Positions 24,001 through 30,000 of a stretch of DNA of 40,160 bases are shown one piece after another; the first letter of the stretch is position 1, and each line of letters starts with the position of its first letter. The stretch spans positions 1-40,160 of IMG/VR virus record IMGVR_UViG_2548876867_000015; one strand, 5' to 3'. A program made the position numbers. The DNA comes from a virus. Taxonomy: Duplodnaviria > Heunggongvirae > Uroviricota > Caudoviricetes.

Positions 24001-27000
24001 TTTTTTTCATCCTGCTTATCGTTTTCAGGCTTTTTGTCAGCAGCAGGTTTATCGCCATCAGCAACAGGTTGTGGCTTATCACCTTCCTGTTGTGATGGAT
24101 CACCAACTGGAGCAGGGTTATCACCTGCAGGCGCTGACGGTTCTGACGCAGCCGGAGCTGCTCCACCATCGACTGGTTGCTCATTGCAAAGACGGCTATA
24201 CAGCAAACGCTCAAATAAATTCATGATCACTCCTGTTCACTGGCCTCTTTGGCCATCTTCAAATACTGTTCAGGGCAATGCGCCATAACGCGCTGAAACA
24301 GTTCCAGCGCCAGATTGCGTTGCCCCTCATTAAATGCCATTGCCATAGCGTCCATCGGCGAGATAGCGGAAAACACACGGCCTTTCTCCAGTACCGACCA
24401 GACAACCCGACGCCCCTGTTCACAGCTCATGACAAAGCGAATGTCATCAATTTCACGCTGTGCCATGTCACGTTGCTTACGGGCGTTTTCTTCTTTCAGT
24501 TGATCGTCTTCGTAATCTGTCATTGTGATTGCCCACCCTGACCACTAACTGCATTCGCCATAGCTGACAAAACACTCGGATCCGAAGTTTTAGCTTCGCT
24601 TAGCGTCTTGGCCCCCTGTGCCGCCGCCATCCCCATCGCCATCATTTGTTGCTGCTGTTGCTGCTGTGCCCGTTGCTGGCGAGCATGCTCAACCTGTTCC
24701 TGCGGAACAATGACGGTTGGAGACACTCCGGACATATCAGCGAATGCATCGATCGCCTGATCAACGTTGAGTTTGTCGAGAGCTTCTGGTTTCGCTTGCG
24801 CAAGTTGACCAATGAAGTTAACCGTGGACGCCAGACTGGACAGGCCGATAGACTTCTGCGCCTGAGCCATGACGGAAATGTATTCGACCTTCAGGGGCAT
24901 GCCTTCCATCGCGTCAGGCGGTGGCGGCAGCATGTTTTTACGCACCATCATCGAGAAAGCGCGGTCAATGAGAGGATTAAGACATTCGTCGTTCAGACGC
25001 TCCAGAACCGGCCCCAACATCAGAAGTTTTTCTTCTTTCATTTCGATCACCGCTTCAACAGGCATCGAGCGGGTATTGATGTTCTGCAACATCATGAACA
25101 GATCGACAAAGTAGGCGCTGTTAATGATTTGACGAGTGTCCTGAATGTCTGCCACCAAATCTGCTGTACTGGGGTTAACCAGATAAGCAGGCCTGAAACC
25201 ATCCTGACCAGTAATCTGATCGATATACGTGATGTCGCCAGGAAGAAGGGAGGCGCGCTGATTCTTGAGGGAAGTCGGAGCAACCATCGGCGGATTGGTG
25301 GCTTTATCAATCAACTGCGACTTGCGCTTCTGGAGAAGCTGCAATGCCTTAACAGGTCCAAGCGCCAGCATACCCGGGCATGATGATCCATAAACATCTT
25401 CGCCGTTAACTTCCCAGCGCGGAGCCATAATTGGAAACTCATCGAATCCGGACTCACGCAACAACTTGTCGTTATCGCCACCAACCTCGTAATAAACCGA
25501 TTTGAATGGCTTGTTCTTGCTATCCAGCTTCGATGTATCGCGGTCAATGTTCGGGTAAACCGAATGCATCACTTCAATCCACTTCTCGTAGGTGCCGCTT
25601 TCCCACATGCTTTTTACGGATTCGCTGACGTTATTTAGCCCGAACTCCTGAACAAGCTGACGAACAGTCATAGAGAACTTGCGAAAACAGGTGTCCACAC
25701 TGCCACGAGGTGAGTTAGCCAGGTAGTAACTGCCTATCGGGAATGGCATTGTGCGAATGATGTCCTCGTCATCCTCCAGCACTGCCATTGCACCAGTGCT
25801 GTATGTGCCGAGGCTTCCGTATAACTGCGGCAGCGACTGATAGAGATTCGACTTATTGAACATATCGTTCATGCGGTTCTGCACCGCCTCAAGCCACAAC
25901 TTAACAGGGCCATAATCCATCATTTCAGGATCTGGCGTAGCCAGGCGAAACCACGGACGCGCGGGGCTTGTGATGCCTGACATCATGCCGCTGGCGAGAG
26001 TGCGCGCCGCCATAGTCCCGGTCGAATCAATAATGCGTGTATTGCGTCGATCGTTACGGTTGACCTCAGAAGTCAGAAAGCGGGAACCACGTGGGTTGAT
26101 GTAATCACTCAACTCGCGCCAGTGCGGCTCGAACGACTGACGCTCGCTTTCAAGTTGTGCGAACTGTTTGTTCAATCGCTCTTTAGTTGTTTCCGCCATT
26201 TCAATGACTCCGGTTACTGACCAAGCAGCGTTTTACCGCTGGTATTAGCGGTTGATGTGTCGCCCTGAGAACCGGTAAGCAGCGTAGAACTACGACCAGC
26301 AGCAGCGCGACGGCGACGAGTTTCTTCGTCGCGGGCATCAACAACGGCGGCATCCTGCTCCTGTGGTGCTGCCTGAACTTCTGGTGTTGCAGGCACTGAC
26401 GGTGAGCTACCCATGCACATATCAATGACTCCGTACGCAATTAAATTATTACCAATTTAACCACATATGATTTATTTATCGTAGATAGTTGACATTTAAC
26501 GCACAAATTATTACCTTTCAGGTAAGCAAAGGGTTCATTCCGGTTATTAACCTGACTGGCTTGTCGTTAAATTGAACAGGTGGAGTGAGCTTTTATTTTG
26601 AGCAGTACGGCGTATGGCACATGCGCCGATAGCGGTCTGGATACGTTTAAGGGGCACCCTCCCTTGCTCGGGCAAACGAACCAGGTAGCCGGAATGTGCA
26701 AGTCGAGCGGTTTTATTCCGCGCACGGGGATTCACCATCCCGGCGATTCGGTGTGACGCCTCGGAAGAGACGAGGGTACAACGATGAGAGCATTTATGGA
26801 GCCGCGACAAAGTGTGGCGCCTTAACAGGCTAAGTGCTCTCAGCGTTGTGGCATTAGCTCAGTTGGACAGAGCAACCGCCTTCTAAGCGGTTGGTCGCAG
26901 GTTCGAATCCTGCATGCCACGCCAGAATCACGCCTAAGGACCGTGATGCCAGAAGTTCCAGGTGCTTGGCGGTGATGGTTTCCCTTGAAGGGCCATCACC

Positions 27001-30000
27001 GCCCTTTTTACAGCAGGACGCCATTGCGATGACTTCATGCTGTAAACCAGTACAGCCACGGAAGGCATAACTCATTGCTTCCAGTTCGCCCGGTTCGCCG
27101 GGCATTTTTTTAAGGTGAATATTATGACGAAGACAGTTGAAGGCATTCAGAAACAATCTCCTGCTGAAGAGATTCGCCGCGAGAACCTCTACCACACTAA
27201 GCTTCAATGCCTAGCTGAAGTGCTTAGTAAAAGATCTTTACTCGATGAGCGTGGTGCCGTGCAGGATGCCAAAGCGATCAACGCCGCATTCGATAAAATT
27301 ACTTTCTAGCGCCGTGACATGTCACAATCAGCCAGCCTATGAGCTGGCTTTGTTTTATCCTCACCAGAGGATATCAACGACATTATCCCCACCAGCGGAT
27401 TAAGCATAGGGATCGTAATCTGTGATGGCCTTGCCTTGCTGGTTCTGCTGACCGGGAATTCGCAGACGCTTCGACACAGGGAACGCAAACGTCAGCAGTA
27501 GCGCATCGCCTTTACCAGGAGAACGCCCAAGTCGCTCTTTGATATCTTCCTTCGGTTCGATAACGATTTTACCGTCCACTCGAACTTTGTACTCTGCTGC
27601 CGACAGGTCGTCCGCTGTTTCCTGGTCATCAAGCATGCCGCCCAGCCTCAGCCATGTCTTGCATGAGTTGAACATCTCCCCACGCTTGTTGAGCATCTGC
27701 GGGTCAGTAGACGCGCCACCGAACGGAACAAGTTGCCATGTACGACCCCATCCGTCACCGATTGACTTCAGACCGGTTCCGTAACCGAAGTCGATGAACA
27801 CCGCGTCAGCCTGGTACTGGTCTTCAAAGTCAGCGATACGCTTCGCCATAATCAGATCGTCGGTGGTCTTGTTACCAGTCCATAGCACCTTACTGTGCAG
27901 CCCCTGCCGCAGGTATATCACCGCGTCATCAACGCCTGAGTATGCCGGGTCAACGCCGATTATCACCGGAGCATGTGCAACCTGCGCAGCGGTTACCACC
28001 CGTTTCATTGCCTCATCAGTAAGACCGGTAGGGATAAACTGCAATTCAGATGCATCAGGGAATATGCCGCGCACACGGATTTTAACGAAGTCGCTGTCTT
28101 CCCCGTAGTCATCAACCCATTTCTGCAACTGCTGTTTGTTAGTGCCTTCCACCGTCCGGCTGTCAATCTGCGCACACTTCCAGCGGTGTTTGTACTTGCG
28201 GAAACATTCACGGAAACGCCCGGTGTTACGCGTCGGGTTCCCGAACGCCACCCAGATGATTTCGGTGTCTTCGTCCGTCAGCGCACCCTCTGCTACCTCC
28301 CACACCAGATCGGCAATGTTCGACGCTTCATCGAATACCACGATGATGCGTTTGCGCTCGTTGTGTAGTCCGGCGAATGCCTCAGTGTTGTGCTCAGACC
28401 AGGGGATTGCGTCAGCTCGCCACCGCTTGTCGTGCCCAGGATCATTGCTGTACATCGCGGTAGCGGTACAGGTAAACCAGTCTTTCGTGATAGCAAGGTT
28501 CGACCACTTGATAATTTCCGGCCAGGTCTTCGTTCGTAGCTGGTTGTCGGTGTTGGCGGTCACCACGACCTTACAATCATCGCAAGTGGACATGCCCCAG
28601 TTGATCAGCATTGAGATGAATGCGGATTTACCAATACCGTGACCAGAAGCGCGTGCCAGCATAAGCGGCTGATAGCGCGTCTCTGGATTCTGCAGGTGAT
28701 CACGTATCTCTCGGAACGCATCAGCCTGCCACTGACGTGGGCCGGTGGCATGTGCCAGTTCAGTCCCCTCTTCCCCCCACGGGAACGCATAGAGAGCATA
28801 GCCAAGCGGATCGTGAGTGAACCCTGCAATATCCTCGATCAACTGCTCTTCAGGAGATAACGCTGTATCTGTCACTGATTACCATCCTGACGTTCTTTGA
28901 GTCGCTTCCTGGCTGCCGCTATGCGATCAGCAATTGTCACATTCACATTAACATCCAGGCGTTCTTTGAACGCGTTGACATCAACATGCTTACCAATCAG
29001 CTCAAGGTTCTTCACCTTGTCAGGCCATTTAATTTTTTTGAGGATTGTCTCTATCGAATCCTCGTTCATGTTCATGATGGTCGATGACAGATCAAAGCCA
29101 CTAAGCGTAGTGCGCCAGATTTTCGGCCACTCACGGATTGGTTTAAGGCTCCCATCGTCGTTGAGGATGTCGATCACGTCCATCTGGTCGATCTCCACCA
29201 GGCGCATGAGAACGTAATCAGCACTGACGCGCATTCGTTTGTTGCGCTCCTCCATCAACTCGGCAATCCGTTTTTGAATGCGTTCATCGCGCATCATGAC
29301 ACTGGCTTTAACTGCCGCTGTATTTGGGGAGAATCCTGCGTTAATCGCTGCCTGAGTTTGGTTTTCAGGCGTTTTGATGTATGACTGGCAATAAGCCTCC
29401 TGCATTGCTGTTAGTGGCTTAAATTGCGTTGATTTGCGTTTATAGGTTTTAGGTTCAGCAGGCATCATAACCACCGTGGTAATAGTTACCGTTGTGGTAA
29501 TAGTACCATGCAAAATAAAGCCGCCATAGTTGGCGGCAGTATTCAAAACCCATCAAATTCATCATGCATAATCTACTCGTGACATGTCACACTATTAATT
29601 TCGTTTCATGCCAGCCTTTAGTCACCCAGCATTGCGAGTCACCATTACACGGGCATGAATTAACGGGAACTCTCTCGCCGCACTTACCGCAAAGTTTTCT
29701 GCTGATCGATTTTATACGCCCGCGCACACGTGCATCATCCTGGCGGATCAGTGACGCTATATACTCACCAAATTCGTAAGGCGCACGCCCGGGGCGACGC
29801 GTGGCACAGTTACGCTCTAGCATTTCAATTTCCTGAGCATCAAGCACAATCTCCATCTTACGCACACCAGATGCAGCTTGTCTGGCTCTCTGAGCGGCTT
29901 TGCGCTCTGCTGCTGATTTAGCCATTCTGATTTTCCTGCATCATGAGAAATACAATCATGGCGGCGCGGAGAGGTCTGGTATCAAATATTGGTCTTACGT

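Follow-up and report, generated by a model that had tools for sequence, protein, structure and literature searches.

An autonomous structured RNA domain beside a tRNA-Arg(UCU) gene of an epsilon15-like phage recurs in unrelated temperate phages

The 40,160-nucleotide (nt) stretch of viral DNA analysed here (IMG/VR record IMGVR_UViG_2548876867_000015; hereafter, the window) belongs to a temperate podophage, or an Escherichia coli prophage, of the epsilon15/phiV10-like group (Uetakevirus). Between its portal and terL genes lies a plus-strand unit with a gene for tRNA-Arg(UCU), and the sequence ahead of this gene, which a preliminary description of the window had taken for a long tRNA leader, contains a conserved core of 174 nt (26605–26778, plus strand). 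This core is an autonomous structured RNA domain, shared by three unrelated groups of temperate phages, namely, epsilon15/phiV10-like podophages, heteroimmune lambdoid phages and P1/P7, and the tRNA is a swappable cargo in a slot that follows the core and a connector helix. The suggestion that the leader might be a structured RNA is thus borne out, far more strongly than it had been ventured, by covariation in an alignment of 36 sequences.

In this alignment, within which every pair of sequences is less than 93% identical, five helices including a pseudoknot are backed by covariation. Helix P1 occupies positions 26608–26628; P2 (26636–26640 with 26681–26685) closes a variable arm; the invariant 19-mer GGUAGCCGGAAUGUGCAAG (26684–26702) and a variable hairpin, P3 (about 26705–26723), come next; the loop of P4 (26727–26730 with 26738–26741) is joined to a downstream GGUG by the pseudoknot (26733–26736 with 26750–26753), and P5 (26759–26763 with 26771–26775) is the last helix. 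An unbiased all-versus-all covariation scan recovered the same helices that had been read by eye. Standard base pairs were found in 95.7% of the cells, compared to 86.4% in column shuffles (none of 500 as high) and 29–53% in slid registers, and changes on both sides were seen in 12 of the 27 pairs. The covariation score was 0.293 vs. 0.125 for shuffled and at most 0.078 for slid alignments, a type of statistic that common ancestry can inflate among kin sequences, although the slid-register control argues against such inflation here. Many of the pairs are G-U (columns 9–19, 32–85, 6–22 and 131–145), i.e. A-C mismatches on the opposite strand, and therefore the folded species is the plus-strand transcript.

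It is the comparison of related sequences, and not thermodynamics, that makes the case for structure. The single-sequence folding energy is ordinary and uninformative (z = −0.10 for the plus strand and −0.69 for the minus strand), and the leader, which had been called GC-rich, is so only moderately (GC fraction 0.50–0.58). RNAalifold alone yielded a partial fold, in which the inner part of P1 was replaced by an invariant long-range pairing, and the covariation-backed helices were retained instead. Some 60 unpaired nucleotides do not vary among phages from many genera of enterobacteria. Because the main set of loci was collected by exact match to the 19-mer, the invariance of that segment is partly by construction; divergent copies obtained by BLAST (from Stenotrophomonas phage BUCT708, mEp390 and a Shigella plasmid) also hold it unchanged.

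A covariance model built from the alignment finds exactly one copy of the core in the window, at 144 bits, and one copy per related locus, except for a single locus with two tandem copies; with the speed filters off, the search returned no partial or second copies serving other operons. The exceptional locus, the viral contig L025, carries its two copies at 3997–4155 and 4804–4960 on the minus strand, about 650 nt apart (116 and 152 bits, respectively). Klebsiella phage KpF5 (L158) has only the 3′ half of the core (1964–2043, model positions 76–156, 64 bits); a repressor gene precedes it, and the annotation at this place is a small hypothetical protein. Rfam 15 contained no match at E-values up to 10 to the core of the window, and none to the mEp460 copy with its cassette; in 11 related loci, nothing reached the Rfam gathering score except for the tRNA, plus C4 and isrK elsewhere.

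Two segments of the core, in several family members, are identical to E. coli ribosomal RNA (rRNA): a 12-nt stretch, CAGCGGUCCGGC (26629–26640), to positions about 1129–1140 of 16S rRNA, and a stretch of 12–14 nt, AUACGGUGUGACGC (26746–26759), to positions about 1819–1832 of 23S rRNA (both in L159). Both fall in conserved, largely unpaired parts of the core. Mimicry of host stable RNA was considered, but matches of 12–14 nt are near the chance level for 12-mers and were not used as evidence.

BLAST searches with the leader alone retrieved copies about 70–83% identical from unrelated phages, nearly always with no annotation beneath. The carriers include the lambdoid phages mEp460, cdtI, 2H10, Stx2c and some Stx2a phages, then P1, P7, D6, SJ46 and about 590 P1-type plasmids, as well as phages isolated on Klebsiella, Enterobacter, Salmonella and Stenotrophomonas. 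The scan of sequence collections for the exact 19-mer pattern, which delimits the phylogenetic range only as far as such matches reach, identified at least 120 viral contigs and 24 species-representative genomes, 22 of them from Enterobacterales. The other two are gut metagenome-assembled genomes (MAGs) labelled Bacillota. The match in an Oscillospiraceae MAG (L137) fails to align with the family and seems coincidental; the match in a Bacillota MAG (L149), on a 1.7-kb contig, is a bona fide core resembling that of L025, and this contig is probably a mis-binned fragment of an enterobacterial phage. Among 5,426 complete E. coli genomes, 1,824 carry the core, at 2,449 places, 547 of these on plasmids, and the core was unannotated in all matches listed.

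Across 145 distinct contexts, tRNA-Arg(UCU) follows the core at a fixed distance in 28; in 17, of the P1 type, a tRNA(CAU) ends about 15 nt before the core; the remaining 100 have no nearby tRNA. The core is therefore an independent module, for which the tRNA is one of several cargoes, and the designation of this RNA as the leader of the tRNA has to be abandoned. An ordinary precursor leader, lacking a function of its own and conserved by close kinship only, would be compatible with the 94–100% identity of the whole locus among the Uetakeviruses close to the window (94–99% over the 1-kb locus for phages HEMP4, PAS61, phiV10 and TL-2011b and many E. coli prophages). However, given the compensatory changes in lambdoids, P1/P7 and other lineages with unrelated flanks, together with the prevalence of contexts that lack a tRNA, this explanation is hardly credible.

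Across the family, the length of the core varies between 148 and 180 nt with no 3-nt periodicity, and the substitutions in its helices are compensatory and not clustered at third codon positions, contrary to what a protein-coding gene would lead one to expect. Several GenBank records nevertheless annotate hypothetical proteins over or antisense to the RNA: mEp460_037 (L001, 2943–3311, minus strand), PhiV10p04 (L002, 2954–3205, minus strand), Tyrion gp54 (L005, 2211–2372, plus strand), a coding sequence of EC.W1-9 (L163, 1961–2212, minus strand) and mEp390_036. No Pfam hits were obtained for open reading frames (ORFs) over the core and no PHROG hit for the ORF of mEp460; one marginal PHROG stretch was found (E = 0.0014 over 21 residues). 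The antisense ORF of 87 amino acids (26547–26810), which had been suspected of being spurious, indeed appears to be so, with no convincing family support and with length variation in other than multiples of three, and the annotated coding sequences overlying the RNA, the tRNA or the connector are probably spurious as well. In spite of these annotations and the marginal hit, a coding gene on either strand, or a DNA site such as a recombination site or a single-strand origin, is very improbable. The frequent G-U pairs, and the fact that the element always runs in the same direction as promoters, tRNAs and terminators, speak for a transcript and against duplex DNA, leaving, strictly speaking, some room for a single-stranded DNA structure of the plus strand. 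Thus, context counts, the structure test, and the length and family checks contradict a plain tRNA leader, a coding gene and a duplex-DNA site.

In most contexts other than those of the P1 type, the core leads into a helix of the form CAAC...GAGAGCA, variable insert, UGCUCUC...GUU. In the window, this connector, or extension, helix spans 26779–26847 on the plus strand (5′ arm, 26779–26795; variable apical insert; 3′ arm, 26832–26847), and its last nucleotide is position −1 of the tRNA, abutting G26848. The two arms co-vary: among 13 variants, the mean for cognate arms is −18.1 kcal/mol compared to −11.4 kcal/mol for non-cognate combinations, and none of 10,000 permutations was as good. A reading of the string UGCUCU(U/C) as a boxA/nut element was rejected, since these bases form the 3′ arm of the connector, where they are paired and covary.

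Phages without the tRNA have the same junction followed by other structured cassettes of about 90–135 nt. The commonest one, in mEp460-type lambdoids, has a perfect 7-bp closing stem (7 of 7 pairs Watson-Crick) and a cloverleaf-like minimum-free-energy fold; neither this cassette nor the other alternative ones are recognised as tRNAs by ARAGORN or Rfam. Canonical T-arm hairpins were confined to the RNA strand 3′ of the core, in 34 of 138 contexts (27–28 true tRNAs and about 7 other cassettes), whereas matched controls contain none, save for P1's own upstream tRNAs. A closing stem on every cassette was also considered, but the signal is too noisy, with a best-of-window search reaching 6 of 7 pairs by chance, and the term tRNA-like was accordingly downgraded: it is solid only for a minority of cassettes, those of the mEp460 type and the approximately seven with canonical T-arms. 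In most contexts, one strong terminator, and frequently a second, comes after the slot. The trailer hairpin AUCACGCCUAAGGACCGUGAU (26927–26947, plus strand), located immediately 3′ of the CCA in the window, also follows a non-tRNA cassette in L042 and L066.

The 5′ leader ahead of the core (26526–26604, plus strand) is specific to Uetakevirus, with no conservation outside this lineage. Its segment 26578–26600 is the remnant 3′ arm of an upstream connector-like helix, homologous to the connector 3′ arm and junction downstream of the core in other variants (GGAGTGCGCTTTCAGGTGTG vs. GGAGTGCGCTTCCAGTTGTG). The window keeps only GGTGGAGTGAGCTTT..., whereas in Tyrion (L005) and PAT1 (L006) the homologous leader, aligned just upstream of the core, pairs CAACTTAAAGCGCGCT...AGCGCGCTTTCAGGTGTG; these two phages retain the 5′ counterpart. 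Modules may have connector helices on each side, which hints at an array-like ancestry.

The unit starts with a promoter-like site (26489–26517, plus strand), in which a perfect −35 hexamer, TTGACA (26489–26494), is separated by a 17-nt spacer from the best −10 candidate, the weak TACCTT (26512–26517). The preliminary description had pointed to the TTGACA and an operator; the −35 hexamer is there as described, but a simple consensus scan called no full sigma-70 match, and the site is put forward as a candidate promoter owing to the perfect −35 hexamer and the overlapping operator. That operator, the exact palindrome TTACCTTTCAGGTAA (26511–26525), overlaps the −10 region and is an exact member of a palindrome family, TTACCT-N3-AGGTAA, with 15 sites in the window at two or fewer mismatches, compared to about one expected; none of 100 shuffles reached 15. 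The sites lie at 6820, 7200, 8261, 11961, 16981, 26511, 29486, 32014, 32076, 34022, 34198, 34359, 34407, 35119 and 35181, such that the gene for a helix-turn-helix repressor (34477–35061) is flanked on both sides (34022–34421 on one, 35119 and 35181 on the other), and further sites (6820, 7200 and 8261) fall in the immI/ant region; the identities of the repressor and ant/immI genes were taken from the annotation of phage TL-2011b. This family is probably the CI operator set of the phage, and the two-mismatch sites within late genes (11961, 16981 and 29486) may be due to chance. Because the operator of the unit belongs to the family of repressor sites, the unit is most likely off in the lysogen and switched on upon induction or infection. 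The proposed link with the late genes needs correcting in this respect; a promoter under the operator of the phage repressor would yield an early, derepressed transcript and not a part of the late programme.

Two other RNAs in the window scored above the Rfam gathering threshold: isrK (67 bits, 7251–7327, plus strand) and the C4 antisense RNA (66 bits, 7352–7435, plus strand). These are the P1-type immI/ant regulatory RNA pair, flanked by the operator-like palindromes of the immI/ant region listed above. Two lambdoid loci with the core RNA, L001 (mEp460) and L020, also have this combination of isrK and C4.

The setting of the core in other phages is consistent with early, repressor-controlled transcription in all three groups. 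In mEp460, cI ends with its own terminator, after which come two OL operators that match OR and, about 40–60 nt later, the core; mEp390 and BUCT708 have the same layout. Of 51 distinct upstream contexts, 25 (73 of 139 loci) have a cI-type repressor gene shortly before the core in the same orientation, with many immunity types represented, and Pfam confirms the Peptidase_S24 and HTH_3 domains in representative upstream repressors. In P7 and P1, the core belongs to the ban operon, which C1 controls, and is flanked there by tRNA(CAU) and ban; the copy in the window is served by an operator-bearing promoter of its own. The first early-left ORF of mEp460 encodes an acidic protein without an arginine-rich motif that belongs to no family of known function and is not N-like. 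With the filters off, no copy of the core was detected on the PR side of mEp460 or near the early operons of the window. The genes flanking the core in P1, trnI and ban, are non-essential by CRISPRi in the laboratory (PMC10695390), and therefore the core is accessory in P1.

The tRNA itself (26848–26924, plus strand) was identified by ARAGORN as tRNA-Arg with anticodon TCT at position 35 and scores 73.3 bits against Rfam model RF00005 (gathering score, 29), which confirms its description as a well-formed tRNA-Arg(UCU) with an encoded CCA. Alignment with argU shows the CCA together with A20 and C35, the established identity nucleotides of arginine tRNAs. The anticodon loop is identical to that of argU of E. 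coli K-12, whereas the acceptor stem (GUGGCAU vs. GCGCCCU) and the anticodon stem differ, so the proposal of a phage-specific copy holds as well. In the ORFs of the window, the frequency per 1000 codons is 7.8 for AGA and 4.2 for AGG, several-fold (about 3–4 times) above the E. coli average. The tRNA had been thought to supply AGA/AGG decoding for late genes: the raised use of these codons in the window supports part of this proposal, but the adjoining portal, protease, capsid and terminase genes (22039–28875) contain almost none. AGA-rich ORFs are found at 3445–6715, 8511–9901, 10442–12916 and 32910–33725; the TL-2011b counterparts of the ORFs at 3445–6715 are annotated as an O-acetyltransferase and a hypothetical protein. 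The tRNA-Arg is already annotated in RefSeq E. coli prophages and several phage records, in that of phiv142-3 on the strand opposite to the one given by alignment with the window.

All remaining features listed in the preliminary description are present at or close to where it had placed them. The neighbours on the minus strand are a small gene (26214–26420) and the portal gene (24520–26199) on one side and terL (27400–28875) on the other, so that the unit opposes the late genes, terS-terL...portal, as claimed. Downstream of the tRNA, likewise on the plus strand, come both of the tandem terminators, the small ORF, the palindrome and the last terminator. The first terminator, T1 (26968–27009, hairpin 26968–27003), has a 14-bp stem followed by CTTTTT; the second, T2 (27088–27110, hairpin 27088–27103), consists of GCCCGG, a TTCG loop, CCGGGC and seven Ts and is kept in phiV10 and phiv142-3. 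The interval between the two (27004–27111) is itself structured, with an ACAGCA...TGCTGT hairpin and then a GC hairpin with a U-run. Its Rfam alignments to the 3′ end of RyhB are weak and not significant (E = 1.8); the interval could represent a distinct small RNA or an additional 3′ end of the unit.

A ribosome-binding site, AAGGTG (27112–27117), lies directly after T2, and the ORF (27124–27309) encodes 61 amino acids from its ATG, or 64 from a GTG at 27115. The ORF occupies a swappable moron slot, bounded on the right by the palindrome GTGACATGTCAC (27314–27325) and terminator T3 (27330–27349). The flanks, T2 and the ribosome-binding site on the left and the palindrome and T3 on the right, are common to the window (slot at 27112–27329), phiV10 (L002, 3228–3599) and phiv142-3 (L162, about 1320–1350). 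The ORF of phiV10 (123 vs. 61 amino acids) is unrelated to that of the window, and in phiv142-3 the slot is empty, with the ORF reduced to eight codons. The match of the 61-residue product to phrog_4846 is limited to the C-terminal 52 positions of that family. The palindrome may mark the recombination boundary of the slot. There is no room for a promoter after T2, and therefore expression of the ORF requires read-through of both T1 and T2.

As for function, we tentatively favour, with somewhat less than even confidence, a scheme in which the core is an early trans-acting RNA released by RNase P. The repressor-controlled unit would be transcribed early into a composite non-coding RNA comprising the leader, core, connector, tRNA-Arg(UCU), trailer hairpin and two terminators, with the core as the constant part of the module and the tRNA as one of several interchangeable cargoes. 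RNase P would cleave at G26848, the 5′ end of the tRNA, and thereby release both a tRNA reading AGA/AGG and a core RNA with a defined 3′ end shielded by the connector helix. The freed core would then act in trans, early in lytic growth, on a highly conserved host component, which would explain the roughly 60 invariant unpaired nucleotides. The scheme fits the stand-alone layout (the operator-bearing promoter, the strong terminators after the slot and the retention of the unit with an empty ORF slot in phiv142-3), the occurrence of only one copy in each phage, the covariation at the junction and the example set by C4: RNase P also matures the C4 RNA of P1 and P7, and an RNA of the C4 type is present in the window according to Rfam.

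Several observations weigh against this scheme. The −10 hexamer of the unit is weak and the promoter scan made no call. ORFs without room for a promoter lie beyond strong terminators, both in the window (between T2 and the ribosome-binding site) and in mEp460 (between the terminator and the first ORF), so that an RNA gene ending at the terminator would need leaky termination. In lambdoids, the core sits where cis-acting antitermination sites lie. P1 and P7 have no connector, cassette or terminator, and RNase P therefore cannot set the 3′ end there; RNase P cleavage at the alternative cassettes, which are unrecognised as tRNAs, is conjecture.

In the chief alternative, the core would act in cis as a processive antiterminator akin to put of phage HK022, the nascent RNA binding RNA polymerase and allowing it to read through the terminators that follow, i.e. 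T1 and T2 in the window and those after the cassette in lambdoids. The promoterless downstream ORFs, separated from the core by strong terminators and co-directional with it, could then be expressed; in the window, the ribosome-binding site that immediately follows the Ts of T2 is maintained although the ORF behind it is exchanged, which implies that read-through must occur. In many heteroimmune lambdoids, the core is transcribed from PL before any other element, in the place that putL occupies (PMC9378689), and comes right after the repressor-controlled promoter, ahead of terminators and early genes. The mEp460 first gene is not N-like, and invariant single-stranded nucleotides would suit contact with conserved host machinery such as RNA polymerase. 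The features of a lambda-type nut site, a single-stranded boxA and an N-like protein after PL, were found neither in the connector of the window nor in the mEp460 ORF. Beyond the promoter-proximal early position, however, the likeness to put is limited: put is about 70 nt long, with two stem-loops and a short triplex, and follows both PL and PR (PMC9378689), whereas the core, of about 175 nt, has five helices and a pseudoknot, is present once per phage with no partial copies, and also occurs in the stand-alone unit of the window and mid-operon in P1. The early operons of the window lack the core, which heads only the small unit facing terL; no terminator precedes ban in P1; phiv142-3 retains the unit although its ORF slot is empty, which is a weak argument because the deletion is recent; and the covarying junction with the tRNA or cassette is left unexplained. 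By analogy, suppression of termination in cis through RNA polymerase binding is a candidate function of the core, but on balance we consider it unlikely, and slightly more so in its extended form, whereby the core would represent a new class of RNA-only processive antiterminator, unrelated to HK022 put in sequence or fold, used at PL by many N-less lambdoids, borrowed by P1 and the epsilon15-like phages, and modifying RNA polymerase co-transcriptionally.

A third, improbable reading is that the core multimerises as a self-assembling 'ornate' RNA of the ROOL/GOLLD kind and carries the linked tRNA or cassette as cargo. ROOL and GOLLD are encoded by phages and prophages, often beside tRNA genes, contain multiple pseudoknots and are non-essential, and the linker sometimes contains tRNAs; GOLLD has one universally conserved and one variable half (PMC12286853). 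RNAalifold proposed a pairing between GCACAU in the P1 loop and AUGUGC in the 19-mer that could be intra- or intermolecular; both strings are invariant, and as this contact never varies, covariation lends it no support. The core is several-fold smaller (about 175 nt, with a whole unit of about 480 nt, compared to roughly 580 to more than 800 nt for ROOL/GOLLD), does not match the ROOL and GOLLD models of Rfam at E-values up to 10, and is confined, unlike ROOL and GOLLD, to temperate phages of Enterobacterales in the data searched. It resembles ROOL and GOLLD in kind without being a member, and only on this improbable reading would it form a homo-oligomeric cage.

The scheme with RNase P release has its own counterparts. 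A functional RNA joined directly to a tRNA or tRNA-like structure that defines the end of its neighbour is the arrangement found in other RNAs punctuated in this way; such tRNA-dependent processing of non-tRNA RNAs by RNase P is exemplified by the C4 antisense RNA of P1/P7 and the eukaryotic MALAT1-mascRNA. The present case differs in that cleavage is predicted and most cassettes are not detectably tRNA-like beyond the closing stem (about seven have a canonical T-arm). As a phage-borne argU-like tRNA-Arg(UCU) gene, the tRNA part is ordinary and of the same kind as others; what sets it apart is the conserved helix that fuses it to a structured RNA domain, and the fact that cassettes other than tRNAs can take its place.

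The tRNA, terminators and moron are commonplace elements that related records already annotate, whereas the core, absent from Rfam 15 and unannotated in the records inspected, is a new family by sequence, fold and regulatory setting, within a known kind, the phage-borne, tRNA-associated structured RNAs. No description of the core was found in the literature open without a subscription, including by searches with literal sequence strings. On the practical side, several hypothetical proteins annotated across the core in GenBank are probably spurious. If the structural inference holds, the core is among the commonest conserved RNA structures in the mobile DNA of E. coli, unannotated until now although about one in three complete genomes contains it, and it is also carried by Stx-converting phages and by the laboratory phages P1 and P7. 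The early, repressor-controlled setting and the invariant unpaired nucleotides point to a specific contact with a conserved host machine, and, since P1 and inducible E. coli prophages carry the core, standard genetics can be brought to bear on its function. Once the target is identified, either put, the sole known RNA-only antiterminator, would gain an unrelated counterpart, or the first tractable enterobacterial model for tRNA-linked phage RNAs such as ROOL and GOLLD would be at hand.

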